From positions 1,280,001-1,344,000 of the forward strand of contig CAVUAK010000001.1 in the NCBI GenBank assembly GCA_963739455.1: 64,000 nt of DNA, written 5' to 3'. The position numbers were made by a program, and so were the translations under genes. Shown here piece after piece: positions 9,788 to 42,015 of the stretch (position 1 is its first letter; every line of letters begins with the position of its first letter). Under the pieces are notes generated by a model. It was not told where the DNA came from. It saw only the letters and a program-made list of their open reading frames with translations, and did not search any database. Origin of the DNA: an uncultured Gemmatimonadales bacterium. GTDB taxonomy: Bacteria > Gemmatimonadota > Gemmatimonadetes > Gemmatimonadales > GWC2-71-9.

Positions 9788-9860
9788 TGCCCCTTGGTGT
9801 AACTGGCAACACGCCTCACTCTGGATGAGGAGAGTCCTGGTTCGATCCCAGGAGGGGCAA
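9788..9860 (+). tRNA. tRNA-Gln (anticodon CTG), CCA not encoded
   Basis: Acceptor TGCCCCT/AGGGGCA, D arm GTGTAACTGGCAACAC, anticodon stem CCTCA-CTCTGGA-TGAGG, T arm CCTGG-TTCGATC-CCAGG. Confidence 0.95.
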
Positions 9861-18019: not shown

Positions 18020-18028
18020 GTCACCTCC

Positions 18029-24943: not shown

Positions 24944-25022
24944 TATTCCCACCTTCCGCTCGATTGAAGGGTCTGGAGCAGTCCGGTGGGAATAGTAAGG
25001 CCGCGGCACGTCGGGCTGGTTG

Positions 25023-25856: not shown

Positions 25857-25907
25857 ATGTTAGAGATGGGGAGTGCGAAAGCGCAACTCACAAAAGAGGA
25901 GGATGGT

Positions 25908-26628
25908 ATGGCAACGGAGATGAGCGCGGTCCAGGCCCCCGACGTGGTGTCCCATAAGGAGTGGGTCAGCCGGCGGGCGGCGTTCCTCAAGAAGGAGAAG
26001 GAGTTCACCCGGCTCCGGGACGAGCTGACGCGGGAGCGGAGTGAGCTGCCGTGGGAAGAGGTGACGAAGTCGTATGTGTTCGAGGGACCCATGGGCAAGA
26101 AGACGCTGGCCGAGCTGTTCGGGAACAAGAGGCAGCTGATCATCTACCACTTCATGTTCGACCCGTCGTGGGAGAACGGGTGCAAGAGCTGCTCGTTCGT
26201 GGCTGACAGCTTGGATGGCTCGACGGTGCACCTCGGTGCGCGGGATACGGCGTTCGCGGTGATCTCGCTGGCGCCGTTTCGAGAAGATCATGCGTTTCAA
26301 GCAGCGCATGGGGTGGAAGTTCCCCTGGCTGTCGTCGTTCGGCACGGAGTTCAACCACGACTTCCGGGTGACGACGGACGAGGTGCAGACGGAGTACAAC
26401 TACGCCGACGTCATGGCGCAGGAGGCTCGTCCATACAAGGGGGAGCGGGAAGGGCTGAGCGTGTTCGTGCGGGATGGTGAGCGGGTGTTCCACACCTACT
26501 CGACGTACCAGCGGGGGCTGGACCTGCTGCTGAACACGTACAACCTGCTGGACATGACGCCGAGCGGGCGGAATGAGGCAGCGGGGATCATGTCGTGGGT
26601 GAAGTACCACGACCAGTACGAGGGCTGA
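25908..26628 (+). CDS. DUF899 thioredoxin-like protein (one indel near 26280)
   Basis: KEKEFTRLRDEL, QLIIYHFMF, GCKSCS, MGWKFPWLSS, HTYSTY.RG, LLDMTP.GRNE. Confidence 0.9.
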
Positions 26629-26639
26629 GGGGTGCCGGG

Positions 26640-26990
26640 GATGCAGCATCACGGCGGGCATCTGGGCGCTGTTGCGTGCCTTGGGATGTGCTTGGCGATG
26701 ATGGTGCCGATGATGCTGCCAGCCCTGGTGCCGATGCTGTTGCGGTATCGTCGGGGCCTTGCGCGAGGCGGGGGAGATGGGAAGCGTACGGGCTGACGGG
26801 GCTGGTGATGGCGGGCTACTTCGCGGTCTGGGCCGTGATTGGAGTGGGGGTGTGGGCGGGGGGGGGTCGGGTTGATGGCGGCGGACGAGAGGTGGGGAGG
26901 CGTGGGGGAGTGGAGGAAAGTTGGGGTGGGGGTGGTGCTGGCGGGTGTGGTGCAACTCAGTAAGTGGAAGGCGAGCTGCGCCCAACTGGG
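26640..26990 (+). pseudogene. Truncated/degraded DUF2182 metal-binding membrane protein
   Basis: AMMVPMMLP, AGYFAVWA and LAGVVQLSKWKASC segments in different frames. Usual neighbour of DUF899; C-terminal half absent. Confidence 0.65.
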
Positions 26991-27028
26991 TCAGGAGGTT
27001 GCGCAGGGTGGCCATGTCTGCGGGCGAT

Positions 27029-28502
27029 CTACTGGACCCGTAACGACCTGCCGAGGCCTCGCAATCGTTGCAGCAGGCGGACGGTGGCCCACGTATCTCG
27101 CTCGCAATAGTCTAGCAGATCTTGGCGCAGCTGACCCCGTTCCGCCACCGAGATCTTGTGCGCCACGAAGAGCAGGCGTGCGATCTCCACACTTGCAAGC
27201 AACCCGTCCACGATCACCAAGTCATTGTAGGTGAGGTCAGGGACCAGTGGTGTCAGGATGTACTTCAGGCTGAAACTGCCGCGAAAGTCGGGATGGTAAA
27301 TGTTGTTCCGCACCACGGGCAGCAGGTCCACCAGTTTCTCCAACAGCTCCTCGAGCGGCTCGGCAAGGTCAGGCACCAACGCCTGCAGCTCTCGGATCCG
27401 CGTCTTCTCATAGGCGGAATAGGTGACGATTCGCCGGGCACCCGCTGTTGCCGCTATCATTGCCTCGGCCAGTTCTCGGCGCGGATCATCGGGCCCTTCC
27501 GCCAGCCAGCCAACGTGGCGGTAAGTGCCATCGGGCAGCTCCTCGTGATAGCTGAACTGCGCAATGGCCGGCATCCAGGGAGACAGTCCCTCCCATACCG
27601 GAATGGCCCTTCCCACCGTTTCGAAGTCCAGAAACCCCAAGGGGCTCTCGAACAGCTCCAGCGCCTTTGCCAGACCCGGCTCCACCACCAGCTCTCCCGC
27701 CTTCAACGAGCGGATCTGTCTCTGCGCCGTCGCCGATAGTTTTGTGCCTAAGGGGATGTCCTGAATTCGGTGAATGCCACTCTGGAGATAGCTCGCGGTT
27801 GTCTTTGGCCCACACAGGTAGAGCGTCGAAATGTGTTCCGGGTCGTCGGGCCAGCAGCGATCGTGAAACGCGCAGTTTCGAGGTTCAAAGCAATGGAGCC
27901 CGATGGCCCGCTCAGGACGCGGACCGGCAATCATCTGCAGCTGCTGCGCGATAAGCCCAGGCACGAGTGGCAGGAAAGCGTCGACCAGGTCCGTCACATC
28001 CTCACGCACCAACAGGGGCCCGTGCTCGGGATGCCGGTAGTCCTTGTTGAGATGCATGATCTCGACGGTCTTGATCGCCAGCCCCGACTCACGGAGCACC
28101 CAGGTCTGGATGGCAGCGTCGGGGATGTGTTCTTCCTTGGTGGACGAGGAGGACTTGACCTCGATCAGGGTGTAACCACCCTCAATGCGCATCAGCACAT
28201 CAACTGCGACGAAGACGTCCCCCGCGAGAAAGCTGGCCTCGAAGATTGTCGGCGCGCCGGCATAAAGCGCTGCCTGCGTGGCAGCAACGCGCTCCTGAAC
28301 AGCGGTGTGCGGCAGGTCGATCAGCACACCACCGGGGAACTGCCTGCCTGGCGAGCCGGCCAACCTCCTCTCCCTGGTCGAATCGGTCCTGTAGCACCCT
28401 GTCGGGTTGCAGCTCGGGGGCACTTGGCTCGTGGACCTTCCACCAGAGCAGCTTGGGACACTGCCATCCGGCCACGAAGCGGGACTTCGAAAGGCGATTC
28501 AT
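27029..28502 (-). CDS. DUF2779 protein: Cas4/RecB-like PD-(D/E)xK nuclease plus RNase H-like DEDD domain (one extra base near 28344)
   Basis: LSKSRF..GWQCPKLLW; VDVL..LIEVKSS; HC-x5-C-x5-C; FLDFET; GSFSLK; YCERDT. Confidence 0.85.
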
Positions 28503-28510
28503 GAGCCTCG

Positions 28511-28532
28511 AATATGCTCGATCGATGTGACA
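28511..28532 (-). promoter_or_regulatory. PafBC-type promoter motif TGTCAC-N10-CATATT for DUF2779 gene
   Basis: 8 nt upstream of the ATG; motif recurs at other promoters in the region. Confidence 0.65.
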
Positions 28533-28555
28533 TTGGGATAGTCAGAAGAGGTCCG

Positions 28556-28571
28556 TAGGACGATCGTCCTA
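28556..28571. promoter_or_regulatory. Perfect 16-bp palindrome TAGGACGATCGTCCTA between divergent promoters
   Basis: Read directly; centred between the two PafBC-type motifs. Confidence 0.55.
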
Positions 28572-28595
28572 TATATGGGTGCGGGCCAGGTCCAT

Positions 28596-28617
28596 TGTCG
28601 CACCGCCTAAGTAGACT
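28596..28617 (+). promoter_or_regulatory. PafBC-type promoter motif TGTCGC-N10-TAGACT for PLD-helicase gene
   Basis: One mismatch from mycobacterial TGTCGG-N10-TANNNT; 27 nt upstream of the start. Confidence 0.7.
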
Positions 28618-28644
28618 TCGCGGTCCCCTTCCTCACGGTTCCGA

Positions 28645-31600
28645 TTGCCGACGAATCCCGGACTCTACGACCTCATCGTCACCGAGGCGCTCGCCGAATC
28701 CCTCCGCGGCGTCGCCGATCATCGCCGCCAGGAGCAACCCCTCGGTGCTGAGGAAGCCGCTTCTCGCCTCGCCGACGCGTTGGGAATTCAACTGGAGCGG
28801 TTGCTCGGGGAACTGAGCGAGGAGGAAGGCGAGGGGACCCGGAAACAACTCGACCTCGTGAATGGCCTTCTCGCGCATCTGAGAGGCCTGCGAGAATCAG
28901 ACCCAGCGATTGACCTCCTTTCCGAGCCGGCCCGGGTCCTTCGAGCCATTCACCCGGTCGGCGTGGATGCGCTCCTCGCCCCGGAAACCGGGCTTGCCGC
29001 ACCCTGGCTTTTCACCGCCGGGCGAGGCTCCCCATCACTCCTGACCGAGCTTCGGCGCGAGGCTGCCGCCTGCGATCAGATCGATATCCTCGTCAGCTTC
29101 ATCACCCTCTCGGGCGTTCGGAAGCTCATCGATGTGCTGCAGACTGCCACCGCGGCCAACGCGGAGGGCATTGGCCGCACCCGTATCCGAGTTCTAACCA
29201 CCACGTACACGGGGGCAACTGAGCTCGAAGCTCTCGACGCCCTGGCTCGCTTGAACGGGTGCACGATCAAGATCTCGCTGGATGGGCGCCGCACTCGGCT
29301 CCACGCCAAGGCCTGGATCTTCAAGCGCGATACCGGCTTTGGATCAGCATATGTCGGCAGCGCCAACCTGTCTGGAGCGGCTCTCATGGGTGGGCTTGAG
29401 TGGACGGTCAAGTTCACTCAGCGCGGCCAAACCTCCCTCTTCGATCGGGCTCAAGCGCATTTCGACACTCTTTGGCTCGATCCGGAGTTCACCCAGTTTG
29501 ATCCCGACAGTCCCGAGTGTCGGGCTGCCGTGAAGGACGCGCTTCGGCGCGAGGGCGGGGAAGGAGAGCTGGGTACGCTGTCGTTCTTTGACATCGTTCC
29601 CAAGCCGTATCAGCAGGACATGTTGGATCAGCTAGAGCACGAGCGCGCCGCGGGGAGAAATCGGAGCCTATTGGTCGCTGCAACTGGGACGGGCAAGACG
29701 GTTATCGCGGCCCTGGACTACCGGAACACCTGCGCGAAGCTGGGTCACCGCCCACGGCTTCTCTTCGTGGCGCATCGGGCTCAGATCCTGAGACAGGCGC
29801 TTCGTACCTATCGGGAAGCGTTGAAGGACAACTCGTTTGGAGAGCTACTGACCGGCGGGCTTAAGCCCACCCAACACGAGTACCTGTTTGCGTCAATCGA
29901 TAGTCTCGCATCCCGAGACCTAGTGAGTCGATTTGGCCCCGGTTACTGGCACACTGTCGTCATCGATGAGTGCCACCGGATGGCGGCAGACCGCCTCGAC
30001 CGGCTCGCCACCCAGATACAGCCTAAGATCCTTCTCGGCCTGACCGCGACCCCTGAGCGGACCGACGGGCAGTCCATCCTCAAGTACTTCAGCCCTCGTC
30101 CAGACAACGCGCCGGCGGTCGAACTGCGCCTTTGGGATGCGCTCGACATGCAGCTCCTGGCTCCGTTCGAGTACTACGCCTGTGACGACGATACCGACTT
30201 TTCAGAGGTGCCCTGGAACCGGGCGGGTGAGACAGCCGCGATCGAGCAGCTCGTCACCGGGAATGACGTCCGGGCCAGGCTGGTGATCAATGAATGGCGC
30301 CGCCTCGCCGGGGACCCACGTCGGCGCCGAGCCATCGTATTCTGCGTATCGGTGGCCCACGCGGAGTTCATGACCAAGAAGTTCAATGAGGCTGGTATTC
30401 CCGCGCTCTGCATCACGGGAAGCACGCCGAAGATGGAGCAGCTTCGCGCACCTCGCGTGCTCAGAGATAAGGACGTGTGCGCCCTCGTTACGGTCGATCT
30501 GTACAATGAGGGGGTCGACCTCCCCGATGTTGATACGCTCCTACTCCTCCGACCAACCGAGAGCCCCGTTCTGTTCCAGCAGCAAATCGGTCGAGGCCTT
30601 AGGCTGGCGCCGGGGAAGGAGTCCTGCCTAGTGCTCGACTTCGTGGGCCAGCATCGAGCGGACTTTCGATTCGACAAGCTCTTAGGTGTGATCACTGGCC
30701 TTACCCGGAGCGAGCTGATCACCGCGGTGGACGAGGGATTCGGTATGCTGCCACCCGGGTGCCATATCCAGCTGCAGCGCCAGACGCGTGAGCAGGTCCT
30801 CCATAGCTTACGGGCGCTGGTCAACCAGAGCTGGAAGCGGCTCACTTCGGAACTACGGAGCTATGCCACCCTGAAAGGGTCAAAGGACGTCTCACTGGCC
30901 GCCTTTGTGAGCGAGCAGCGGCTGAGCATTGACGAGATCTACCGATCATCGTCCACGGCTCCAAGGGGGTGGACCACACTCAAGAGAGCAGCGGAACTAT
31001 TGCCGGGAGCGGCACCCGAGGGGGAAGCGAACTTTTCGCGCCGGTTCGGGGCCCTGCTCCACGCGGATGACCCAGAGTACTTAGGTCTTATCCAACGGTT
31101 GGCGGCCGCGCCGGGCACCTGGAAGCCGGCATCCGAGACCGATGCCCGGCGGGCCCAAATGCTCACCTACCAGGTCGATAGCAGCCTCAAGCCGATGAAC
31201 TGGTCGGAGATGGCTCAGCGGCTGGCGTTCCTGCCCGAATGCGCCGCGGAGCTACAAGAGCTGGCGACCATACTCTCCACGCAATCGCGGTTGGACCCGC
31301 GCCCAATCCTGGGGCTGGAGGATGTCCCCTTGGCGCTTCATGGCGCTTATCGCATCCGTGAGATCCTGACCGCCGTCGGTTTCCTGACCGTGGAGCGGCG
31401 GACGCCATTTAAGGCGGGTGTACTGCCGCTGCCTGCGCGCAAATGCGAGCTGCTATTGGTGACGCTCGACAAGTCGGATGGCTACCATGATCGAATTGCG
31501 TACCACGACTACGCCTTGAGCTCCAGCCTCTTCCATTGGCAGACCCAGAACGCTTCCGGTCCAGATACGCCTGCGGGGAAGAGGTACATCGGCAGCGGGC

Positions 31601-31791
31601 AGAATGGCTGGAGCTTTCAGCTCTTTGTTCGCACGACGAAGGATCAGCCCTATCGGGCCTGCGGCCCCGTGGTGCTGGCCGGTCCGGACGCCATTTCCGG
31701 CGACCGGCCCATGAACATCAACTGGGCGCTCACGGTCCCGTTGCCGCCGAAGCTTTTTGCGGAGTACAGTGTGCTCCGGAGCCAGGCCTAG
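28645..31791 (+). CDS. PLD nuclease - SF2 helicase - DUF3427 protein (SauUSI-like type IV restriction enzyme architecture)
   Basis: RLHAKAWIF + GSANLS (PLD), ATGTGKT, DECH, LTATPER, NEGVD, QQIGRGLR; C-terminal YHDYALS..FHWQTQN (DUF3427). Confidence 0.9.
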   Translation: MPTNPGLYDLIVTEALAESLRGVADHRRQEQPLGAEEAASRLADALGIQLERLLGELSEEEGEGTRKQLDLVNGLLAHLRGLRESDPAIDLLSEPARVLRAIHPVGVDALLAPETGLAAPWLFTAGRGSPSLLTELRREAAACDQIDILVSFITLSGVRKLIDVLQTATAANAEGIGRTRIRVLTTTYTGATELEALDALARLNGCTIKISLDGRRTRLHAKAWIFKRDTGFGSAYVGSANLSGAALMGGLEWTVKFTQRGQTSLFDRAQAHFDTLWLDPEFTQFDPDSPECRAAVKDALRREGGEGELGTLSFFDIVPKPYQQDMLDQLEHERAAGRNRSLLVAATGTGKTVIAALDYRNTCAKLGHRPRLLFVAHRAQILRQALRTYREALKDNSFGELLTGGLKPTQHEYLFASIDSLASRDLVSRFGPGYWHTVVIDECHRMAADRLDRLATQIQPKILLGLTATPERTDGQSILKYFSPRPDNAPAVELRLWDALDMQLLAPFEYYACDDDTDFSEVPWNRAGETAAIEQLVTGNDVRARLVINEWRRLAGDPRRRRAIVFCVSVAHAEFMTKKFNEAGIPALCITGSTPKMEQLRAPRVLRDKDVCALVTVDLYNEGVDLPDVDTLLLLRPTESPVLFQQQIGRGLRLAPGKESCLVLDFVGQHRADFRFDKLLGVITGLTRSELITAVDEGFGMLPPGCHIQLQRQTREQVLHSLRALVNQSWKRLTSELRSYATLKGSKDVSLAAFVSEQRLSIDEIYRSSSTAPRGWTTLKRAAELLPGAAPEGEANFSRRFGALLHADDPEYLGLIQRLAAAPGTWKPASETDARRAQMLTYQVDSSLKPMNWSEMAQRLAFLPECAAELQELATILSTQSRLDPRPILGLEDVPLALHGAYRIREILTAVGFLTVERRTPFKAGVLPLPARKCELLLVTLDKSDGYHDRIAYHDYALSSSLFHWQTQNASGPDTPAGKRYIGSGQNGWSFQLFVRTTKDQPYRACGPVVLAGPDAISGDRPMNINWALTVPLPPKLFAEYSVLRSQA

Positions 31792-31815
31792 TGCTCGTAT
31801 GCCTTCCGGCGGAGC

Positions 31816-32256
31816 ATGCTCGCCATGGCTGAGCCAGTGATAAGAGTCATTGCGGCGGTTATCCAGCGAGGAGATCGCTTCCTGGTCTGTCGGCGGCCAC
31901 TGCACAAGCGGCACGGGGGGCTGTGGGAGTTTCCAGGAGGGAAGGTCGAAGAGGGAGAAACCGACCGCCAGGCAATTGAGCGTGAGCTCCGAGAGGAGCT
32001 TGGCTTGGAGGTTGTGTCCACGGTTCCTGAGGCCTTCTCGCTTCACGATCCTGGCTCACCGTTCCTAATAGTCTTCGTTCCGGTTGAGGCCACGGGTGAG
32101 CCGGCGTGCCGAGAACATGTGGCGATGAAGTGGGGGAGCTTGGAAGAATTGGCTGCCATGCCCCTCGCCCCGAGTGACGCCAGCTTTGTCGCCTTCCTAA
32201 GCACGCATGACTCTTCAGGTGAGTCGGCGCGCCGAAGCAGTATTCGACCCAAATGA
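31816..32256 (+). CDS. MutT-like Nudix (d)NTP pyrophosphohydrolase
   Basis: WEFPGGKVEEGETDRQAIERELREELG Nudix box; LAPSD. Confidence 0.92.
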   Translation: MLAMAEPVIRVIAAVIQRGDRFLVCRRPLHKRHGGLWEFPGGKVEEGETDRQAIERELREELGLEVVSTVPEAFSLHDPGSPFLIVFVPVEATGEPACREHVAMKWGSLEELAAMPLAPSDASFVAFLSTHDSSGESARRSSIRPK

Positions 32257-32504
32257 ATAGCGATCCCAGCGCCCCGTTGGTCGCATCCTTGCCGGCCGCC
32301 CCAAGCGAACTGTCCTGAGCCCCCGCTTCGTGGACGGGCGTGTCGAGCTGGTTGAAGTCGATCTCGACGCTTGCCCGGTTCACCGGCCCGTCCCGCCGTG
32401 CGCTCATACCGTCTGGCATGCCAGTCGTGAGCGCACAACCGACTACATCTGCCGGCCAGGCGGACAGAGCTCCACGACAAGGCGGATCGTCGCGTAGGCA
32501 CCAA

Positions 32505-32526
32505 CGTCACACCCTCATTGCATCCT
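32505..32526 (+). promoter_or_regulatory. PafBC-type promoter motif CGTCAC-N10-CATCCT
   Basis: 35 nt upstream of the lipoprotein ATG; homologous to the 35019 copy. Confidence 0.6.
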
Positions 32527-32561
32527 GGTGGGCAGCAGCTCTACCCCAACCAGGAGTTCCC

Positions 32562-33623
32562 ATGCGTCGCTTGCGGATTGTGACCGCCATCTTCGCGAGC
32601 GCCTTGCTCGCCTCCTGCAGCGAGCCATCGGCTGCCCCCGAGGGGCCCGACGCTGTGGTTCCAGCTGACGGTGACTTCGAGACGGCCGAACTCCGGATGG
32701 GTCAGGTCCGCACCCGCCCGGTCTGGGTACCGCGCGGCTACACGCTGGTAGACATGAACAACCGTGGCGACCTGCTGCTCGGTGCGGCCTGGCTGCCGAA
32801 GGGCAGGGTGCGACCGCTCGCCATTCCGTTCGTGGGGCGGTCCATCAACAACCATCGACAGATCCTGGGTCCCGGGCGGAAAATCTTCAACAACGGCCGC
32901 GTCAATGAGCTGCCGGATCCATGCATCCCCTTCACAGCGCTCCTTACCGAGGATGACGGTACAACCCGGCAGATTGCCTTCGACTGTTCGCAGGTCCTGG
33001 TGCACAGCGATGCCCTCGCTGAGAATGGTGACGCAATCATCTACTACTGGCATTTTGGCGTCGCCAGTGAGCTGTCACCCTATCAGTACTTCAAGGTCTG
33101 GCGCGCAGCCGAGCGCGAGTGGAAGACGATCCGCGAGTTTGAACTTGATGAGCACATTCTTATCCATCCGGTCATCAGTGACGCCGGCGTCCTCGCCCAC
33201 ACCATGAATAACAGTGGCATCTCTCAATCACTCGTGTCTGACAGCGTTTACCTGTCGGGCGCTGAGGCTTGCCCCGGGTTTCCTGGCGCGAATACACGCG
33301 TTCTGGCCGTCAATGACGCAGGAGAGAGCGTGGGCCTGGTGTACTGCCCGGATGCGGGGAACGCTGGGGTGGGCGTCAGGTGGTCGCGCGAGGGCATTCC
33401 GACTCGGCTGGGAGGCTCTCCTTCCGTGATCGACAACTACGGGAACGCCGCAGGCATTCGCGACAGCGACGGGCACACCGTGCTCTGGCTGATGGACGGA
33501 CTGGTAATCGATCTATCAGCTGCAGCCGGGGTTCAGCCGGCGAGCGTGCGGAAGTTTCTGAAGCGGGGGCAGATCTACGGGTTCGTCGGCACGGAGCCCG
33601 TAGTGTGGCGGTTCGGTTTCTAG
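32562..33623 (+). CDS. Hypothetical lipoprotein with HAF-like extracellular beta repeats
   Basis: AGGAG RBS, lipobox LASC; repeated MNNRGD, INNHRQ, ISDAG, VNDAGE and IDNYG units. Confidence 0.7.
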   Translation: MRRLRIVTAIFASALLASCSEPSAAPEGPDAVVPADGDFETAELRMGQVRTRPVWVPRGYTLVDMNNRGDLLLGAAWLPKGRVRPLAIPFVGRSINNHRQILGPGRKIFNNGRVNELPDPCIPFTALLTEDDGTTRQIAFDCSQVLVHSDALAENGDAIIYYWHFGVASELSPYQYFKVWRAAEREWKTIREFELDEHILIHPVISDAGVLAHTMNNSGISQSLVSDSVYLSGAEACPGFPGANTRVLAVNDAGESVGLVYCPDAGNAGVGVRWSREGIPTRLGGSPSVIDNYGNAAGIRDSDGHTVLWLMDGLVIDLSAAAGVQPASVRKFLKRGQIYGFVGTEPVVWRFGF

Positions 33624-33671
33624 TACGCCGGCTGGCGTCGGGGACGGCCTGGCTCAGTTCTCCTGCCTTTA

Positions 33672-34322
33672 TCACCAAGCCTTCGTAGCGGCCAGGACCC
33701 GGGCCTCGACCAGGGCGAGAACCTGCGCTTCCGACGTCCCTCCCTTGCCCTGCAGCGCCAGCAGGAACAACTGCGCCGCATAGCACCAGGTGAGCGTGAC
33801 CAGTGCGACGGCATCGAGCCAGTTGAGCAGGTCGGTCGCAACCTTCACTTGATGGTTTCGGAGCCGTGCAGCCTTCGTCGTGCGCGCGATGTCCGCCAGC
33901 GCTTCCAGTGCCTCGGCGGTGTCCTTTACATAGCGCAGCGGCGAGAACTTGACGCCAATCTTGACGCCCGTTGCCAGCAACTCCATGAGCAGGTGCTTCG
34001 CGGCCTCCGCATCCTTGCCTTGCGATATCAAGTCGGCGGACGCGAGGTGAGCCTTGAATGCCGACAGCGACTGAACCGCCGAGATCTGGACGATCCGGTT
34101 GCCGGTTGCACTCGACCGCTGCTTTCCCGTCGCCACTGCCTTCCTGTTGTAGGCCGCGACCGCCGTCTCCAGGTGCGCGAGGCTCGCACTCATTGCGCCG
34201 AACAGTGCGTGCACCTGCTGGACCCTTACCACCAGTGCCTGGTGCGTGTCCTTGGTGACAAGTGCTCGCACCGTCCTGCGGCGGCGGGAGAGGCGGGTAA
34301 GCACTGCTGCGACCTTGGCCAT
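33672..34322 (-). CDS. Hypothetical alpha-helical protein (216 aa)
   Basis: AGGAGA RBS and TACTAT -10-like element; fills the gap without overlap. No recognised family. Confidence 0.6.
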   Translation of the reverse strand: MAKVAAVLTRLSRRRRTVRALVTKDTHQALVVRVQQVHALFGAMSASLAHLETAVAAYNRKAVATGKQRSSATGNRIVQISAVQSLSAFKAHLASADLISQGKDAEAAKHLLMELLATGVKIGVKFSPLRYVKDTAEALEALADIARTTKAARLRNHQVKVATDLLNWLDAVALVTLTWCYAAQLFLLALQGKGGTSEAQVLALVEARVLAATKAW

Positions 34323-34401
34323 GGAACTCTCCTGGAGCGGGGCACTGGGGGAGGATCACTCCAATAGTACCCCGTTCGAGAAATCGCGATCGAGCGCGCG
34401 G

Positions 34402-34899
34402 TCATGGCCTTCTGGTCAGGCCGGGCATGGCGAGGGCCGCGAGGAACCCCAGAAGCACCAACACCCCGACAGCGAGCGCGGGCAATAGCGGTCGAACACC
34501 TCCTGCGTTGACGATGGCCTCAGGGTCGGTGTGGTGTGCCTTCGTCTGGGCGAGTTTCCAGTTGGTGTGGCGATAGTAGAACCAGCTGCCGTACGCGCCG
34601 AAGAACACGGCAACCAGGAGGTTTCGTGGGATATCCAACCAGCGGGCCCCGGGCGGCACGCCCAGGAGCGCCTCAACGACGCCCCCGACAGCACCCAGCC
34701 CGATGAGCGCGACAAGGGAGATGAAGAAGTACTTGTACATCCGTCGATACAGCATCCACATGACATTGAAGAAGAAGGCTGGCCAGTTCCAGCGAAGCGC
34801 CTGCAATCCACCATTCGGGTCGGCCTCAGTCCAGGCCTGCAGGTAGTAGTCCGCGTTCGGCCCGACGAAGGCGCGAACGTCCGCTTCAGGATGCTGCAT
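34402..34899 (-). CDS. DUF2628 membrane protein
   Basis: AFVGPNADYY...W, WNWPAFFF..WMLYRRMY, YY, GG motifs. Confidence 0.85.
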   Translation of the reverse strand: MQHPEADVRAFVGPNADYYLQAWTEADPNGGLQALRWNWPAFFFNVMWMLYRRMYKYFFISLVALIGLGAVGGVVEALLGVPPGARWLDIPRNLLVAVFFGAYGSWFYYRHTNWKLAQTKAHHTDPEAIVNAGGVRPLLPALAVGVLVLLGFLAALAMPGLTRRP

Positions 34900-35018
34900 G
34901 AGACTCGCCTTTTGGGGATAGGAGAACGTACGCGGCGGTACCGCAGCGGAGAAGCATGGGACGAACGACCTATGGAGGAACGGCGCTCGGAGCCAGGTCA
35001 TCGCGCGCGGGCGGCTAC

Positions 35019-35040
35019 TGTCACACCATAGCCCCATCCT
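35019..35040 (+). promoter_or_regulatory. PafBC-type promoter motif TGTCAC-N10-CATCCT
   Basis: 36 nt upstream of the small ORF at 35077. Confidence 0.65.
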
Positions 35041-35076
35041 GGTTGCAAGAGTTCTACTCACCCAGGGGTTGCCCTC

Positions 35077-35229
35077 GTGATACTCATTCTGGTCTCGCTC
35101 TTTGTGGGCTACTTCGCGGGCTACCTGCGCGGCACCCACATCGCAGACGCCGAGTGCGCCGCGTGGCACGGCGCCTCGCCCGTAGACTGGCAGGACGGCG
35201 ACACCGTGCCCCACTGTCACAGGCGTTAG
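35077..35229 (+). CDS. Unannotated 50-aa single-TM peptide
   Basis: GTG start, AGGGG RBS-like element; MILILVSLFVGYFAGYLRGTHIADAECAAWHGASPVDWQDGDTVPHCHRR. Leader homologous to that of the 32562 gene. Confidence 0.5.
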   Translation: MILILVSLFVGYFAGYLRGTHIADAECAAWHGASPVDWQDGDTVPHCHRR

Positions 35230-35237
35230 CATACTTT
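35215..35237 (+). promoter_or_regulatory. Variant motif TGTCAC-N11-TACTTT (or N9-CATACT) before leaderless pafB-like gene
   Basis: TACTTT 35232-35237 lies 6 nt before ATG 35244; spacing is off by one relative to the other copies. Confidence 0.5.
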
Positions 35238-35243
35238 TCATGC

Positions 35244-36341
35244 ATGGCCAAACTTCAGCGCTGGGTGGACCTCCTCGCCGCACTCCTCCGGCGCCGCAAT
35301 GCCGCGAGCCTCGAGGAACTGAAGCCCGACGTCCCTGAGTACCTCAGCGCCACCAACCTCGCCGCGCTCCGTCGCATGTTCGAGCGGGACAAAGTGGAGC
35401 TCCGGGAGTTCGGCATTCCCATCGTCACCGTCTCCGACTCGGCGGGAGAAGTGGTGGGCTACCAGCTTCGCCGCGACGCCTTCTACCTCCCCTACCTGAC
35501 GCTCATGCAGGGCGCCGCCCGGAAGTCAGCGCCGCGGCGCGTCGATCGCTACGGCTATCGATCGCTTCCCGAGCTCGCCTTCGAGGCGGATGAACTCGAG
35601 GCGGTGGTCGAGGCGGCGCGCCGAGTGCAGCAACTGGGTGACCCCACGCTCACGACGCTGGCAAAGTCCGCCATGCGGAAGCTCGCGTTCGATATGCCGG
35701 TTGACCTGGGCGTGCGCGAGATGAAGGCCGTCTTCATGGGACCACTGGCAGATGCCGTTGCACCAGCAGCTCGAGCCCCCGCCGCCGACATCCTCCAGGT
35801 GCTCGACGAAGCCCTCCGGCTGCGGAAGCATGTCACCATCCACTACCACTCCATCGGCTCCGACACCCTGGGCTCGCGCGAGGTGTCTCCGTTCGGCCTC
35901 TTCTTCCTTGGCTCGCACTGGTACCTGGCGGCGCAGGAAGATCCCGCCGGTCCGGTGAAGAACTTCCGGGTAAGCCGGATCAGCGATGCCACGGTGAACC
36001 TGCGGCGGCCCGGAACACCGGACTTCGAGATTCCCGCCACGTTCGACCTCAAGACCCATGCGACTTCGCGCCACGCCTGGGAGCTCGGCGACGCAGGAAG
36101 CATCGAGGCGCTGGTGGATTTCCGCGGAGCGAGCGGCCCGACTGTCGCCGCACAGCGCCTGGGTGAGGCGGTTCCGGGTGCACCGACACAGCGGCGCTTC
36201 CGCGTGCGACGGGTCGAGCCATTCACCCGATGGCTGCTTTCATTTGCCGGCGAAGCGGTTCCGGTCTCGCCTGAGGAAGTGACCGCACCCTACCAGGAAC
36301 TGGCCCGGACCGCGCTCGCCGCCGCGAGGGAGTCCGCATGA
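35244..36341 (+). CDS. pafB: PafB-like HTH-WYL-WCX transcriptional regulator
   Basis: RRMFERDKVELREFGIPI matches the PafB-specific RMFERDKxELRxxGIP; REVSPFGL...HWYL...FRVSRI WYL domain. Confidence 0.85.
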   Translation: MAKLQRWVDLLAALLRRRNAASLEELKPDVPEYLSATNLAALRRMFERDKVELREFGIPIVTVSDSAGEVVGYQLRRDAFYLPYLTLMQGAARKSAPRRVDRYGYRSLPELAFEADELEAVVEAARRVQQLGDPTLTTLAKSAMRKLAFDMPVDLGVREMKAVFMGPLADAVAPAARAPAADILQVLDEALRLRKHVTIHYHSIGSDTLGSREVSPFGLFFLGSHWYLAAQEDPAGPVKNFRVSRISDATVNLRRPGTPDFEIPATFDLKTHATSRHAWELGDAGSIEALVDFRGASGPTVAAQRLGEAVPGAPTQRRFRVRRVEPFTRWLLSFAGEAVPVSPEEVTAPYQELARTALAAARESA

Positions 36342-37300
36342 CCGACACCGCTGCCGACCAGCTCCGTCGCGTGCTGCAGCTCATTCCGGAGCTGGCTGAC
36401 GACCAGAAGCACTCGCTCGACGGCATCGCCGATCGCCTGGGTGTTGACCGGAAGCAGTTGCTCAAGGACCTGCGGAGCCTGGCCAACCGGTTCGATGATC
36501 CCGGCGGGTTCGTGGAAGGAGTGCAGGTGTATGTCGGCAGCGACTCGGTGTCGATGCACGCCGATCACTTCCTTCGCCCCATGCGCCTCACAGTGCAGGA
36601 GCTTGGCGCGCTCGAGCTCGGCATGGCCCTGGTACGCGCCGAGCGGCCGCCAGAGGAGCGTGGAGTGGTGGATCGCGCGCGGGCGCGCCTTGCGAAGGTG
36701 CTTTCACAGACACCGGGTGACCCGCCGCCGCTCGATGTCCGCACCGCGTCCACCGGCTCCGACGCCGACAACGAGACCCTCGCTGCGGTGCGCCGAGCGA
36801 TGCGGCTCAAGCGCATGCTCAACATCAGCTATCGCAGCAGCAGCGCGAATGAGCCGAGGGAGCGCGCGGTCAGGCCGTACGCGTGTGTCTTCGCGTCGGG
36901 GGCGTGGTACCTGGTGGCCTACTGCGAACGAAGCGCGGGGCTCAGGGTGTTCCGGCTCGACCGGATCGAGGCGGTGTCGCAGGGAGAGACGCCCTACGAG
37001 ATGCCGGAAGGATTCTCACTGGATGATGTCGTGCGTGACGGTCGGGTATTCCTCGGTCAGCCCAATGAACAGGTTCGTATCTGGTATGGTCCAGCGGTGG
37101 CGCGATGGGTGGCGGAGCGGGAAGGGAAGTCGCTGGAGAAGGATGGCAGCGTGACAATCAGCTATCCGCTTGCTGACACGCAGTGGGTGGTGCGTCACGT
37201 GCTGCAGTACGGCGCGGAGGCGAGGGTGCTGGAGCCGGAGAGTGCGCGGGTGGCGGTGCGGGAGGCGCTTGAACGGATTACCTCGGCGCCCGCGGCCTAG
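36338..37300 (+). CDS. pafC: PafC-like HTH-WYL-WCX transcriptional regulator
   Basis: LRRVLQLIP...IADRLGV..KQLLKDL and RPMRLT..E (PafC-type); WYLVAYC...RVFRLDRI; VLQYGAEARVLEP; ATGA overlap with pafB. Confidence 0.85.
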   Translation: MTDTAADQLRRVLQLIPELADDQKHSLDGIADRLGVDRKQLLKDLRSLANRFDDPGGFVEGVQVYVGSDSVSMHADHFLRPMRLTVQELGALELGMALVRAERPPEERGVVDRARARLAKVLSQTPGDPPPLDVRTASTGSDADNETLAAVRRAMRLKRMLNISYRSSSANEPRERAVRPYACVFASGAWYLVAYCERSAGLRVFRLDRIEAVSQGETPYEMPEGFSLDDVVRDGRVFLGQPNEQVRIWYGPAVARWVAEREGKSLEKDGSVTISYPLADTQWVVRHVLQYGAEARVLEPESARVAVREALERITSAPAA

Positions 37301-37830
37301 GAGAGGCCCGCGAAAAGTGCCGCGACGTCGATAACGAGCGGCTCACCGACGCCTGGCGTCCACGGCAATTCGCGATCTAGAACCTCTGGCCGGTCGTCGC
37401 CCGGCGTCCAGCGCTCCACCACCCCGCCATCGATGTCCACGATCCAGTACTCAGGAACGCCCGCGCGCTGATAGAAGCGCCGCTTGAGGCCACGATCGTA
37501 GCGCGCGGTTGATGGGGACAGCGCCTCGACGACCAGGAGGGGCGGCGCATCCTCCCACCTCTCGAAGTTGATCGATGGCAGGACGAAGATATCGGGCTGG
37601 TTCACCTGGCCAGGTTCCAGCTCGAGGTCGGCCGGTGACCAGAGCGCCCGGCCCAGGCCGGCCGATCGAACGTATGGGCTGAGCACGTCGTAAAGCGCGC
37701 TGAGCACCACCTGGTGCCGAAAGGCGGGCGACGGGCTCACGATGAGCTCGCCGTCCACCAACTCGTATCGGTTGCCGTCGGCTGGGAGGTTGAGCACCTG
37801 TTCGCGGGTCCAGCGGATGGTGTCGGGCAT
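37297..37830 (-). CDS. Uma2 family endonuclease (paralog of 202-741)
   Basis: RYELVDGELIVSPSP, QPDIFV, VEALSPST, KRRFYQRAGVPEYWIVD. Confidence 0.9.
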   Translation of the reverse strand: MPDTIRWTREQVLNLPADGNRYELVDGELIVSPSPAFRHQVVLSALYDVLSPYVRSAGLGRALWSPADLELEPGQVNQPDIFVLPSINFERWEDAPPLLVVEALSPSTARYDRGLKRRFYQRAGVPEYWIVDIDGGVVERWTPGDDRPEVLDRELPWTPGVGEPLVIDVAALFAGLS

Positions 37831-37836
37831 GCCCAT

Positions 37837-37866
37837 AGCGTACGCTCGGCTCGGCGGGATTGGCAA
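37837..37866 (-). promoter_or_regulatory. Sigma70-type promoter TTGCCA-N18-TACGCT, leaderless Uma2
   Basis: 6 nt before ATG; conserved with 748-777. Confidence 0.55.
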
Positions 37867-37881
37867 GGAATGCCGGTACAC

Positions 37882-37903
37882 TGTCACACCCCCCTTCCAG
37901 ATT
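37882..37903 (+). promoter_or_regulatory. PafBC-type promoter motif TGTCAC-N10-CAGATT for vWA gene
   Basis: 50 nt upstream of ATG 37954. Confidence 0.6.
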
Positions 37904-37953
37904 CCTCCCCGGATCAGCCGCCATTCCGCGGCGCCAATGCTCAGGGAGGCACG

Positions 37954-39210
37954 ATGCGCGCTCAAGTCCATCTGTCCACCAAGTTCCTGACCACCCAGAA
38001 CGCCCACCAGGTCGGCATCCTCACCACGCTTGCCGGTGACACGCCGCCAACCCGGGCACCGATCAACGTCATCCTGGTGCTCGACCGGTCGGGATCGATG
38101 TCGGGCCAGCCGCTCGCCGCGGCCCTCGAGGCGGCGCGCCGCTTCGCCGGCTTCCTGGGTACCAACGACCGCCTGGGCGTGGTGGCTTTCGATGACGAGG
38201 TGACGGTGGTGAGCGCCCCGGCTCCCGCGGGGAACCCCGCTGTGCTGGACGCGATCAGCCGGATCCAGGCCGGCGGCAGCACCAATCTCTCTGGCGGCTG
38301 GCTCAAGGCGTTCGAGCTGGCGCGGGAAGGCATGGTGGATGGCGTCAACCGGATCGTGCTCCTCACCGATGGCCAGGCGAACGTCGGCATCACCGACCTG
38401 CAGGCGCTCACCGCGATGACGCGTAGTGGCGCTGAGTCGCGTATCAGCACCACCTGCATCGGCTTCGGTTCCGGGTTCAATGAGGACCTGCTGCAGGCGC
38501 TCGGTCGCGAGGGCCGAGGCAACTACTGGTACGTTGAGCGCGACGACCAGATGGCGGGAGTGTTCGAGGGGGAGATCGAGGGACTGGTGGCACTCGCCGC
38601 GCAGAACGTGGTGGTCGAGGTGCGGCTGCTTCACCCGAAGGCTTCCGGAGTCACGTTCTTGCAGCAGTATCCGGTTACCCGCACTGCTGACGGCGGCTGG
38701 TCGGCGTCGCTGGGAGATCTCTACGCCACCTCACCGCTCGCGCTGGGGCTCATCATCCATGTTGACGAGCTCGAGTCACTGGGCGTCACTCCCGTGGCCG
38801 AGGTGAGGTGCATTGCCGATGTGGTGCTGGCGGACGGCATCGAGCATCGCACGATCATCCAGGAGGTGAAGGCCAACCTGGATGGTGCGGATCATCCCGA
38901 GCCGGTGGTGGAGAAGACGTTCCTGCGCTTCGCTGCGGCCACGAGCCGGGATGAGGCGATCAAGCTTGCCGATGCGGGAGACACCGATGGTGCGGCGAGC
39001 GTCTTGAACAACGTGGCGGCGCAGTTCTCGCCCTACCTGGACGATGCGGAGATGGTCCAGGAGCAGTCAGACCTTGCCTCGGAGGCGGCGCGGCTCAAGG
39101 CACAGGAGTACGCGCCTGAGGATCGGAAGTACATGCAGGCGTTCTCGATGAGCATTCGGGAGGGGAAGCGGGCGTACAAGGACAAGCTGCGGAGGCCGGG
39201 GAAGAAGTAA
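37954..39210 (+). CDS. von Willebrand factor A domain protein (YfbK/Ca-activated channel-like, cytoplasmic)
   Basis: GGAGG RBS; MIDAS DRSGS, GGSTN, LLTDG.AN.G, GFG.GFNEDLL. Confidence 0.9.
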   Translation: MRAQVHLSTKFLTTQNAHQVGILTTLAGDTPPTRAPINVILVLDRSGSMSGQPLAAALEAARRFAGFLGTNDRLGVVAFDDEVTVVSAPAPAGNPAVLDAISRIQAGGSTNLSGGWLKAFELAREGMVDGVNRIVLLTDGQANVGITDLQALTAMTRSGAESRISTTCIGFGSGFNEDLLQALGREGRGNYWYVERDDQMAGVFEGEIEGLVALAAQNVVVEVRLLHPKASGVTFLQQYPVTRTADGGWSASLGDLYATSPLALGLIIHVDELESLGVTPVAEVRCIADVVLADGIEHRTIIQEVKANLDGADHPEPVVEKTFLRFAAATSRDEAIKLADAGDTDGAASVLNNVAAQFSPYLDDAEMVQEQSDLASEAARLKAQEYAPEDRKYMQAFSMSIREGKRAYKDKLRRPGKK

Positions 39211-39222
39211 GCCTGAGATGAT

Positions 39223-40071
39223 CTACCTTGCGGCGGCCGCCCGAGCACTGAGCTCGGCGGCCGCTGTCTCGACCCTCCAGGTGCCATCCTTGTAGCCGAT
39301 GACACGGACGGTGCCGTCCATGTCGGTGCGGTAGATCGCTTTCGCGTAGTGACCGTAGTACTGAAGCACCCACTGATCGGGATGACCGTACGAGTTGTTT
39401 CGGCCTACCGAAACAACGACTATCTCGGGCTTCGTGGCCTCGGCCCAGCCTGGAATGATTCCGTTGCGGGCGCCATGATGCGCCGCCTTCATCAGTGTGA
39501 CCTGCGGCATGCCGAGCGAGAGGAAGTACTGCAGTTCCTCGTACTCAGAATCGCCGGTAAAGAGCGCCTTGAATTGTCCGAACTCCAGCAAGACTCCAAC
39601 CGACTCATTGTTTGTGCTCCCACCAAGCCCGGGTGGCGGCAGGATGCGCAGGCTAGTGCTTCCAAGCGCGAACGTATCAGGCGTCGCTGTAGTGCGAGGA
39701 ACGCCCATTCGTCCGAGAACCCACTCGACGAGGTTCCAGTCGCCCGACTTGTACCGTTGTCCATTGTCCATATAGGACGCGACCGCAAACATGCCGAGTA
39801 CGGTTGGCATGCCGCCGATGTGATCCTGATGCGGGTGTGAGGTGATAACCAGATCCAGGGAATCGACGTGCCATTCCCTGAGACGGTCGAGGATAGCTGC
39901 GTTGCGCCCGGCATCGATCAGCGCCGCCCGTCCCTCGAACGACCGCACCAGCACCGCGTCCCCCTGGCCCACGTCGAAGAAAATGACCTCGATCGAGTCC
40001 GCCTGCTGGGCACCGAGCGGGTGCCCGAGACCCAGGACGAGGGCAGTAAGAGCAACAAGTTTGCGGAGCAT
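39223..40071 (-). CDS. Exported ComEC/Rec2-like metallo-beta-lactamase-fold hydrolase (probable nuclease)
   Basis: Signal peptide; DVGQGD, SHPHQDHIGG, NNES, FTGD, HHG, N.YGHP, RTD.DG. Confidence 0.9.
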   Translation of the reverse strand: MLRKLVALTALVLGLGHPLGAQQADSIEVIFFDVGQGDAVLVRSFEGRAALIDAGRNAAILDRLREWHVDSLDLVITSHPHQDHIGGMPTVLGMFAVASYMDNGQRYKSGDWNLVEWVLGRMGVPRTTATPDTFALGSTSLRILPPPGLGGSTNNESVGVLLEFGQFKALFTGDSEYEELQYFLSLGMPQVTLMKAAHHGARNGIIPGWAEATKPEIVVVSVGRNNSYGHPDQWVLQYYGHYAKAIYRTDMDGTVRVIGYKDGTWRVETAAAELSARAAAAR

Positions 40072-40116
40072 GCCCGCGCAACCAGCAGGGAGCGTGCCCA
40101 AGCCCGCAGACGAGCG

Positions 40117-42015
40117 TCAAGGCGCCCGGTAGAACGGCTCCCCTGCCTCTGCCTCGAACCTTGCCCGCTTCTTCCGCGACGCTCGGTCCAGCAGCAGGCA
40201 GGCCCAGTCGCCCTTGATTGGCATTCCCTCAATCACTGCGCTCCGCACCTTGTTCAGGTGCTCGCGCCGGTCGAATGACGTCGCGTACTGCCAGATGCTC
40301 TTCCGGGCCAGCACCGCCAGTCCGTAGAACGGCATTTCCGGGAAGTGCTGGACTTTCTTCCGCACCAGCGTGGCACTGCTGATCTCGGGAATCGCCTTGA
40401 GTGCGTCTCGCAGGAGCTGAAGCTCCGACTCGGGGAGCCCGTGCGGCTCGATCGGGTCGCCGATCACGAACGTTGCCCGCTCCTGCCGTGCCACATCAAC
40501 GTTGTCGATGTGTGCCTGTGCCCGGTTCACGTATCGCTCTGCTTCTGCCGGCCGGCCACGAGCCGTAAGGAAGCTGTGCGCCTGGCGGCACGCTTCGAGC
40601 ACATCGATACCGCCGAGCGCGAGTGCGCGATCGACGAACACCAGCCCTGCCTCATCACCCGCGCGGAGAAGGCCCAGGCCCCACGCCACCTGGGCCGGCG
40701 CGAACTCCGGTGTGTCGGTCGCGATCTGCTTGATGAGAGCGTCTCCTTCCTCACCCCGCTCCTCGTCCCAGAGGAGCCTCGCCCGCTCCCATCGCTCCGC
40801 AGCGCTCAATGAGCCCGCCTCGGCCGCATCGAGCTTCGCCAGGCGCTCCCGGTTGGCGAGCACCTCGGCGTGGGCCTTCTGCCACTCCGAAAGCATCGTG
40901 TCGCTCCACAGCTTGTCCGCCTCCTTCATCAAGGCTGGCAACGCGTCACCCAGGATTTCCGTCATGGCGCTCACCCCGACCGGATCAGGCAGCCTCGGCG
41001 CTTCGCCCAGCGCCTCGAGTCGTTCCCTGAGGCACGGATGCGAGTCCAGGAGGCCGGTCTGCTCCGATAGCGCCGGCATCAGCCCGCGTGCGATCTCGTC
41101 ATGCCTGGTGGGCTCACCCACCCACCGGCACAGGGCGCTGATGGTGTCGTTCGTGGGTAGCGGATGCTTCCGGACATGTCGCTGGATGTGCGGGATGCCC
41201 ACTCCTGCAATCCAGCGGCTCGCGAGTTCGATGCGAACCAGGGCGTCGGCGTACTCCCGGTTGGTGACCAGCGAGGCGCCGAGTCGATCGGCCCGATACT
41301 CCACCACGCGTGACATGACCACACTGTAGGCGTTGAAGAGCGGTGCGTACCACTTCGCGAAGCGGGCAAGCTGCTGGTTCGCCGCGGTGGGATTCTTCCT
41401 GAGCTCCACGAGCAGGCTGTTCCAGGACTTGTGCTGCCGATAGATCCAGGCTCCCCACCCGGGGTCGGCATTCAGAAGGTGGGCCATCTCGTGCGCCAGC
41501 GCCGCGCGAAATTCGCGGACGCTCAACACCTGCATGAGGGCCAGGCCGAGGACGAGATAGTTGCGATGCCACCCGAAGACGCCAAGCCTCGGCACCTGGA
41601 CCACGCCTGCGTTGACATCCATGTCGAGCAGCACAGCGTCGATGCGGGGCCCGCCTATCTCCTGGCGGACCTCCTCGACGATGCGGAAAAGGTCCGGAAA
41701 CCGCTCCGGCGTAGCCGGTATTCCCCTTGGCGTGGGGATCTCCACCCAGAGCGCCCGCAGCACGATGACCAGCCCGGCCAGGGCCGGAGCCAGCAGGGTG
41801 AGGGGGCCCTGCATTCCCGGCTGGGTGAAGGCGCTCCAGATCCCGCCGATGACAAGGGCAACCAGCAGCACGACGACGCCAACGAGGACGAAATAGCCGA
41901 GGGCGACGACGCCCAGCACGCGAAGCTGGTACAGGCGGGGGTGAGCAACAGCAGTCCGTTGGAGCCCGAGGACGAGTGCCTCGAGCTTCCGGTATTCATC
42001 GGCGCTCCTGATCAT
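40117..42015 (-). CDS. M48 (HtpX-like) membrane Zn metallopeptidase with C-terminal TPR-like region
   Basis: Two TMs, VNAGV, AHEMAH, EYRAD, DSHP.L.ERL. Confidence 0.88.
   Translation of the reverse strand: MIRSADEYRKLEALVLGLQRTAVAHPRLYQLRVLGVVALGYFVLVGVVVLLVALVIGGIWSAFTQPGMQGPLTLLAPALAGLVIVLRALWVEIPTPRGIPATPERFPDLFRIVEEVRQEIGGPRIDAVLLDMDVNAGVVQVPRLGVFGWHRNYLVLGLALMQVLSVREFRAALAHEMAHLLNADPGWGAWIYRQHKSWNSLLVELRKNPTAANQQLARFAKWYAPLFNAYSVVMSRVVEYRADRLGASLVTNREYADALVRIELASRWIAGVGIPHIQRHVRKHPLPTNDTISALCRWVGEPTRHDEIARGLMPALSEQTGLLDSHPCLRERLEALGEAPRLPDPVGVSAMTEILGDALPALMKEADKLWSDTMLSEWQKAHAEVLANRERLAKLDAAEAGSLSAAERWERARLLWDEERGEEGDALIKQIATDTPEFAPAQVAWGLGLLRAGDEAGLVFVDRALALGGIDVLEACRQAHSFLTARGRPAEAERYVNRAQAHIDNVDVARQERATFVIGDPIEPHGLPESELQLLRDALKAIPEISSATLVRKKVQHFPEMPFYGLAVLARKSIWQYATSFDRREHLNKVRSAVIEGMPIKGDWACLLLDRASRKKRARFEAEAGEPFYRAP

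Follow-up and report, generated by a model that had tools for sequence, protein, structure and literature searches.

A PafBC-type regulator pair and a linked bipartite promoter element in accessory islands of Gemmatimonadota

We analysed 64,000 nucleotides (nt) of contig CAVUAK010000001.1 from an uncultured Gemmatimonadales bacterium (assembly GCA_963739455.1; this whole stretch is called the window). At 27029–39210 it carries an island with two adjacent genes for WYL-domain regulators and several genes preceded by a short, spaced promoter-like element. We identify the two WYL genes as pafB and pafC orthologues, and a predicted bipartite promoter with the geometry used by PafBC is linked to the presence of the pair. 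Judged by its genes, its residues and its predicted promoter, the system is a member of the PafBC family, but it is not the recA- and proteasome-linked system of Actinobacteria. From the sequence evidence, the pair probably forms a PafBC heterodimer that activates a small regulon of accessory genes.

The first gene, pafB (35244–36341, forward strand), encodes 365 residues arranged as winged HTH (helix-turn-helix), WYL and WCX domains, with the recognition helix RMFERDK. The second, pafC (36338–37300, forward strand), encodes 320 residues with HTH_PafC, WYL and WCX domains, and the two frames overlap in an ATGA. An earlier model reading of the letters and open reading frames (ORFs), hereafter the sequence-only reading, had proposed a coupled PafB-like and PafC-like pair, and this is what we find. 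Matches to solved structures were reciprocal: the first product was nearest to PafBC and PafB chains (E 2e-17 and 3e-16), followed by PafC (6e-5) and CapW (3e-4), and the second to PafBC and PafC (2e-29 and 2e-18), followed by PafB (8e-11). Similarity of the pair to CapW/BrxR is weak, lies in the WYL domain and has E values of 1e-5 or worse. We built a tree of 23 proteins, comprising seven of the 15 PafB-like rows, seven of the 14 PafC-like rows, the Nonomuraea pair and seven other WYL proteins. The Gemmatimonadota PafB-like proteins joined Nonomuraea PafB (support 100/99) and the PafC-like proteins joined Nonomuraea PafC (97/97), rather than the seven other WYL proteins; a joint clade of Gemmatimonadota PafB-like and PafC-like proteins was rejected (approximately unbiased test, p-AU 0.0007).

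We then mapped onto the PafB and PafC alignments the residues named for Mycobacterium smegmatis in PMC8635444 and PMC11804915. The GTC-reading arginines R46 and R50 of PafB are R44 and R48 here, and K5, R8, K52, R56 and Y76 are K3, R6, K50, R54 and Y73. The residues of PafB that bind single-stranded DNA (ssDNA), R181, Y196, R211 and R214, are R212, Y227, R242 and R245, and those of PafC, R201 and R204, are R206 and R209. Except for R54, the mapped DNA- and ssDNA-contact residues of PafB are invariant in 15 homologues. Other positions have changed: PafB R204 is lost and R208 is replaced by K, and PafC D62 is E here, with E in only 9 of 14 homologues.

All five intergenic sites listed in the sequence-only reading, each a TGTCAC-like hexamer followed at 10 nt by a -10-like hexamer and pointing into a gene, are present. 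They are TGTCAC-N10-CATATT (28511–28532, reverse strand; 8 nt before the ATG of a DUF2779 gene, probably leaderless), TGTCGC-N10-TAGACT (28596–28617, forward; divergent from the former and 27 nt before a helicase-nuclease gene), CGTCAC-N10-CATCCT (32505–32526, forward; 35 nt before a lipoprotein gene), TGTCAC-N10-CATCCT (35019–35040, forward; reading into a 50-codon ORF and pafBC) and TGTCAC-N10-CAGATT (37882–37903, forward; 50 nt before a von Willebrand factor A (vWA) gene and the top-scoring site of the genome). An A directly follows the hexamer in every case. The observation, made by eye, that other hexamer copies lack a -10 at this distance also holds: exactly five of the 50 YGTCRC hexamers in 27029–39210 have one at N10. 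An off-by-one copy had been noted at 35215; it is best read as TGTCAC-N11-TACTTT (35215–35237, forward), pafB's own site, leaderless and 6 nt before the ATG. The N11 form of the pafB promoter recurs in three genomes of the same genus, so its spacing is not a sequencing error.

Five sites compare with a mean of 0.13 in dinucleotide shuffles, of which 0 of 1000 reached five (maximum 2), and with 0.098 predicted for the island at the frequency seen elsewhere in the genome (29 sites; genome size taken as 3.6 Mb, assembly 84% complete). The leaders of the 32505 and 35019 sites are homologous over about 60 nt, so these two are not independent but count once; a site of the 32505 type also precedes lipoprotein homologues in two relative loci (L033 and L047). 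Because the pattern YGTCRC-N10-YANNNT was fitted to these five sites, the weight of the argument rests on held-out tests in relatives. A matrix trained solely on 26 sites from relatives placed the five at ranks 1, 2, 5, 6 and 7 genome-wide.

In 20 loci from relatives (311 kb), TGTCRCA-Nx-YANNNT occurred 22 times at N9, which is N10 counted from the hexamer, versus 0–3 times at any other spacing from N4 to N15. A further 73 loci (80 less 7 duplicates; 915 kb) gave 35 occurrences at N9 versus 0–4 at other spacings. The same heptamer emerged when no prior pattern was supplied: TGTCACA was the most enriched upstream 7-mer (27 of 538 regions, versus 6 of 2528 in this genome). TGTCAC lay in the sense direction 39 times and antisense 9 times in the relatives' upstream regions, and among 29 unselected copies the -10 A and the -10 T were each present in 26. 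Across 748 upstream regions of the 93 loci, TGTC-N12-xAnnnT was found 105 times, versus 6–18 times at other spacings. Position 5 of these 105 sites is A in 87 and G in 12, position 6 is C in 58 and G in 40, and position 7 is A in 79; a run of C follows (the spacer is C-rich, sometimes G-rich), and the -10 starts with TA in 44, CA in 31 and GA in 27. No -35 consensus was present at 17 nt from the sites, nor any inverted or direct partner repeat. The predicted element is thus bipartite, TGTC(A/G)(C/G)A with a fixed 10 nt from hexamer to xAnnnT, non-palindromic and without a -35. The sequence-only reading had called it a drifted form of the mycobacterial one. That description is overstated: the older actinobacterial consensus, tTGTCRgtg-8nt-TAnnnT (PMC5656591), includes TGTCA with identical spacing, which leaves little drift in the core, and TGTCAG and TGTCGG variants are also present in relatives. 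This motif comparison with Actinobacteria rests on published papers.

The element follows the regulator. The 25 genomes with pafB held 77 TGTCACA-N9 matches versus 21 for the N7 control, and the 35 genomes without a pafB match held 48 versus 44, both counted after removing 8 rRNA-type matches; the fourth TGTCACA-N9 site of the present genome itself falls in 23S rRNA. The position of the sites relative to genes is also regular. Gene starts came from a simple gene caller and are approximate; 12 of the 105 sites end exactly 6 nt before the start codon and 23 within 5–10 nt. This genome's own TAnnnT hexamers are most frequent 6 nt before ATG (32 of 1035 genes), which indicates that the 3' half of the motif is the housekeeping -10 and that many targets are leaderless. 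As a separate observation, TAnnnT (mostly TAnnTT) peaks 5–9 nt before ATG genome-wide, and leaderless transcription looks common.

What lies behind the sites? The 93 TGTCRS sites precede pafB (22), vWA genes (16), DUF2779 genes (7), AddB-like genes of AddAB-type pairs (5), TM0106-like helicase-nucleases (4), YbjN-like genes (4), PEGA lipoproteins (4), Big_2 lipoproteins (4) and RmuC, RecC, ARPP-1 and Smr-like genes (2 each); the remainder are single or paired unknowns, and in all more than ten unrelated gene families are represented. Nuclease, helicase or recombination genes account for about 24 of the 71 non-pafB sites. The 88 pafB loci have an in-register site within 160 nt in 23 cases and the N11 form in 3, and some of the site-less pafB genes sit behind AddAB-like genes that have a site. 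In genomes of the genus, a pafBC-vWA core is fixed and the surrounding cargo varies; the motif-led cargo here is the type IV restriction enzyme with MutT, the DUF2779 gene, the lipoprotein gene and the vWA gene. The label of a defence island, given by the sequence-only reading, therefore stands in part: one motif-led gene here fits a type IV restriction model, whereas across relatives the sites most often lead to pafB itself, to vWA genes, to nucleases (of end resection and others) and to lipoproteins. Site clusters unlinked to the pair occur in some genomes; for example, G006 has two divergent sites some 2 Mb away from pafBC, and G027 has three sites on another contig, so control can act at a distance. 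An expected enrichment before recA did not materialize, with YGTCRS-N10-xAnnnT in 0 of 30 recA promoters, and outside the island this genome showed no spacing peak in 2587 upstream regions (29 versus 23–42). The targets are mostly local, and this is not a global repair regulon.

We propose the following mechanism, modelled on mycobacterial PafBC. The products of pafB and pafC would form a heterodimer whose WYL domains bind, in a tunnel, ssDNA arising from DNA damage or from the processing of incoming DNA. The PafB helix would read GTC at about -26, the PafC HTH would replace the -35 contact of sigma region 4, with the dimer lying between DNA and region 4, and the housekeeping polymerase would then fire weak promoters that lack a -35. 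The regulon would include pafBC itself, a positive feedback loop that the N11 spacing would probably detune in this genus. It would further include end-processing nucleases and helicases (AddAB-like, RecBCD, RmuC, TM0106-like, DUF2779 and, here, the type IV enzyme with MutT) as well as vWA genes, YbjN-like genes and lipoproteins; recA would stay outside. Our confidence differs between these parts. Activation by this pair at these sites is quite probable. That ssDNA is the signal is likely, and we favour, on balance, that PafBC inserts as it does in mycobacteria, between DNA and sigma region 4. Phage as the main natural trigger seems doubtful. To our knowledge, mycobacteria are the only organisms for which sigma adaptation has been demonstrated, and it has been proposed for Actinobacteria.

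Several observations weigh against this reading. The tree contains a single actinobacterial pair and seven other WYL proteins, and Nonomuraea PafC is a long branch. A site within 160 nt is missing from 61 of the 88 pafB genes, and 47 of the 71 non-pafB targets are not nucleases or helicases, which a role in DNA damage leaves unexplained. The genomes compared are related and so are not independent samples, the N9/N7 counts included. A perfect site before a vWA gene occurs in one genome (G018; 100% complete, in 340 contigs) in which neither pafB nor HTH_PafC gave a match. At the presumed contact surfaces, the PafB wing tryptophan W70 is not conserved, and M. smegmatis SigA R416 is replaced by Y and S446 by E or D in 22 of 22 group-1-like sigmas from six genomes (SigA numbering counted by hand on a mycobacterial sigma alignment). 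These sigma changes imply either that the interface has changed on both sides or that recruitment works otherwise; together with the W70 change, they make an interface identical to the mycobacterial one improbable. A predicted complex of the two HTH regions and region 4 of the L197 sigma scored 0.01, which carries no weight for or against. The present genome has four short group-1-like sigmas. Across six genomes, Gemmatimonadales have three or four such sigmas each (L195–L216), with no long RpoD seen; in all of them Y replaces the usual R of LRFGL in sigma region 4.1.

The sigma substitutions lead to the first alternative, in which regulator and promoters are the same and PafB reads GTC, and the polymerase is recruited through a rewired surface (other sigma residues, the beta flap or alpha) rather than by -35 replacement. 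The uniform changes at R416 and S446 in the 22 sigmas would fit this, as would the missing wing W70, a PafC D62E exchange confined to 9 of the 14 homologues, and the fact that the sigmas are all short, with long RpoD not seen. We nevertheless think it unlikely, since the spacing to the -10 is rigid and equals the mycobacterial one, so that the dimer should occupy the space of sigma region 4; moreover, R442 is conserved in the 22 sigmas, and the -35 consensus at 17 nt is absent.

It is much less likely that the pair is a CapW/BrxR-like repressor that sits on TGTCAC beside the -10 and is released when it binds ssDNA. WYL repressors do govern defence loci (PMC9122601), and the regulon is local and includes the pair's own promoter. 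Yet the proteins cluster with PafB and PafC rather than with the single WYL proteins tested, their CapW/BrxR matches are weak, neither an inverted nor a direct partner accompanies the site, and an operator needs no exact spacing. Furthermore, 58 of the 105 sites combine a weak CA or GA -10 with the lack of a -35, which suits promoters that need help.

We also regard as highly improbable that an alternative sigma factor uses the element as its -35, or that the element is another regulator's site, with pafBC as bystander or target. The extracytoplasmic function (ECF) sigma ECF41 is the obvious candidate, for TGTCACA is its published -35 (TGTCACA-n16-CGTC; PMC3426412), and the orphan site in G018 could be read in this way. 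But of 114 TGTCACA copies in the 93 loci, CGTC follows at N15–17 in 2 and xAnnnT at N9 in 73; leaderless sites leave no space for a more distal -10, and the motif excess tracks the presence of pafB. An ECF41 promoter, a palindromic operator and a -35 element were each rejected. Finally, chance, or copying of one sequence, is suggested by the common leader of two of the five sites and by 29 other matches to the loose pattern in the genome, mostly in coding sequence, but is next to negligible given the held-out spacing peaks, the shuffle test and the more than ten unrelated gene families behind the sites.

How does this PafBC system compare with known ones? In Actinobacteria, mycobacteria among them (RecA-NDp promoter; PMC8635444, PMC11804915, PMC6789036, PMC5656591, PMC8223512) pafB and pafC are likewise orthologous, adjacent and overlapping. 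The GTC-reading and ssDNA-binding residues are shared, as is the 22-nt promoter TGTCR..-N10-xAnnnT without a -35 and with the TGTC element at -23 to -28. The mycobacterial regulon includes RecBCD and AdnAB (PMC8223512), matching the RecBCD-like and AdnAB/AddAB-like targets found here, and PafB and PafC have been placed in a wide class of WYL regulators (PMC6789036). There are also differences. Here the pair belongs to a Gram-negative phylum, is patchy, comes with no pafA found and does not have recA as a target; it leads a handful of accessory genes rather than about 150; its own promoter often has a site; the spacer is C-rich and the -10 often a weak CA or GA; and the sigma region-4 contacts and the PafB wing tryptophan are changed. 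A search for pafA (PF03136) across this genome, which is 84% complete, found none; pup and proteasome genes were not searched genome-wide. Both recA and lexA are present.

That the pair occurs outside Actinobacteria, as the sequence-only reading had it, is correct insofar as real orthologues exist in Gemmatimonadota, but it is not wholly new: a pafBC operon (MXAN_1359/1360) under LexA has been reported in Myxococcus xanthus, where 24 of 51 indirectly LexA-dependent genes are stated to have a PafBC-binding sequence (PMC9705874). In PMC12288472 that pair is mentioned and left unstudied. By description, the M. xanthus genes resemble ours as an adjacent winged HTH-WYL pair named pafB/pafC; in contrast to the LexA-controlled operon there, 26001–41000 of the window here showed no LexA box candidate. 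DdaA of Moraxellaceae, DriD of Caulobacter and SiwR of Mycobacterium are also WYL activators of DNA-damage genes, and DdaA ties DNA damage to anti-phage gene activation (PMC12392091); these are single-gene regulators, however, and DdaA stands in for SOS, in contrast to the present genome, which has both lexA and recA and keeps them separate. BrxR, CapW and Sll7009 share the winged HTH-WYL-WCX architecture and the local control of a variable gene cluster, but are single-gene repressors, in contrast to the pair found here with its weak WYL-domain matches and no palindromic operator. Among the literature matches listed, from a coverage short of most subscription journals, no paper joined PafBC and Gemmatimonadota.

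The distribution of pafBC in Gemmatimonadota is patchy. PafB matched in 26 of 61 near genomes and HTH_PafC, above its cut-off, in 52 of the 201 genomes examined from the phylum, although HTH_PafC is not specific, because 5 of 14 control genomes also match. Of 555 confirmed genome matches, the best 80 were Gemmatimonadota with one exception, the relatives at 75–77% identity being Gemmatimonadales, and pafC follows pafB in 74 of the 75 loci with enough sequence to judge. Many homologues carry the Joint Genome Institute (JGI) annotation 'proteasome accessory factor B'. Some homologues of about 700 residues (L113; proteins P0001–P0005) have two matching stretches and are either natural PafB-PafC fusions or read-through errors. 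No PafB relatives were found in viral contigs, and the plasmid collection gave PafB matches in 2 records, one of them a chromosome-sized actinobacterial record. In the reverse direction, a search of metagenome and viral contigs with the strict motif returned 136 loci, most of them short or low in GC, and 0 had a WYL match; this makes for a weak test, and the motif alone is no predictor of WYL genes outside this clade. Separately, strict-motif matches in high-GC metagenome contigs (L229, L243, L246, L254, L284, L300, L308, L309 and L316) lie 6–9 nt before apparent starts of genes, some of which we take to resemble actinobacterial rpe and orn. TGTCACACCCC may act as a PafBC element in such contigs too.

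These results give good support for a PafBC-type regulon in a distantly related Gram-negative phylum. Its roughly 100 natural promoters, and sigmas in which two of the three contacts known from mycobacteria are missing, make the generality of sigma adaptation, and which contacts matter, directly testable. The division of labour appears to differ from that in mycobacteria, with recA apart and accessory nucleases under PafBC. The motif also provides a tag that would link unknown genes (vWA, YbjN-like, DUF2779, lipoproteins) to the proposed ssDNA-triggered response. More speculatively, PafBC with its 22-nt promoter could be a portable ssDNA-sensing module rather than an actinobacterial speciality. 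It might be gained and lost with Gemmatimonadota accessory islands, recruit cargo by copying a short promoter-leader cassette, run a LexA-independent circuit of DNA-end processing and restriction, and adapt a short sigma via a rewired interface. On this view, the mycobacterial regulon, which spans the genome, would represent a domesticated version of such a module. We offer this wider picture tentatively.

The remaining island genes are as follows. The DUF2779 nuclease-like gene (27029–28502, reverse) has weak RecB/Cas4-like matches; its reading frame, intact in relatives, is interrupted near 28340 in the present assembly. Divergent from it, a PLD-helicase-DUF3427 protein (28645–31791, forward) matches the PADLOC model of a type IV methyl-directed restriction enzyme (E 5e-198), and a NUDIX/MutT-like hydrolase gene (31816–32256, forward) lies immediately downstream. 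The predicted lipoprotein (32562–33623, forward) has a lipobox read from its sequence and no Pfam family. Two island genes without a site, for a 216-residue unknown protein and a DUF2628 protein, occupy 33672–34899 on the reverse strand. The 50-codon ORF (35077–35229, forward) has a hydrophobic start and is doubtful as a gene; no relative of it was found among the relatives' loci compared. A putative Uma2 endonuclease gene (37297–37836, reverse), convergent with pafC, has no site upstream, and the vWA-domain protein gene (37954–39210, forward) belongs to the family that, next to pafB, is most often a target in relatives. In three loci (L040, L042 and L043) a gene for a Pua-like domain is found again and again beside pafBC and vWA.

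Two further candidate sites in this genome are doubtful. One, at position 1384422 of contig C1, lies 6 nt before a UvrD-like gene and overlaps the end of the preceding gene; sites of this type also occur in three incomplete genomes without a pafB match. The UvrD-like helicase there (L136; C1:1384450 onward) is apparently fused to a DnaQ-like exonuclease, frame-broken here and about 965 residues long in relatives. The other, at C1:1366640 before a TerB-like gene, has a low score (rank 72); a homologue of this gene comes after pafC in one relative locus (L039). A possible weak remote target is CGTCTC-N10-TAGGTT, 6 nt before an operon (L138; C1:1837767) that we presume to encode HerA, Mre11/SbcD and Rad50/SbcC relatives. 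A repeated element starting TGTCGCAGTTCCTCCT, with six copies on contigs C1 and C3, matches the loose motif by chance.

By eye, a conserved direct repeat TTCG(G/T)-N6-TTCGG is visible upstream of most of the 30 recA genes (L053, L139–L167) and is a candidate Gemmatimonadota LexA box; it also stands before lexA in this genome (contig C2, about 224560–224590). Elsewhere in the window, shifts of frame interrupt kinase and DUF899 genes (22580–25009, 25857–26628 and 47685–49454); together with the break in the DUF2779 gene, this suggests sequencing indels, probably from long reads. The window also holds a tRNA-Gln gene (9788–9860) and two small gene pairs that we take to resemble type II toxin-antitoxin modules, AbrB with Fic/Doc and HicA/HicB (6441–7096 and 17621–18274).

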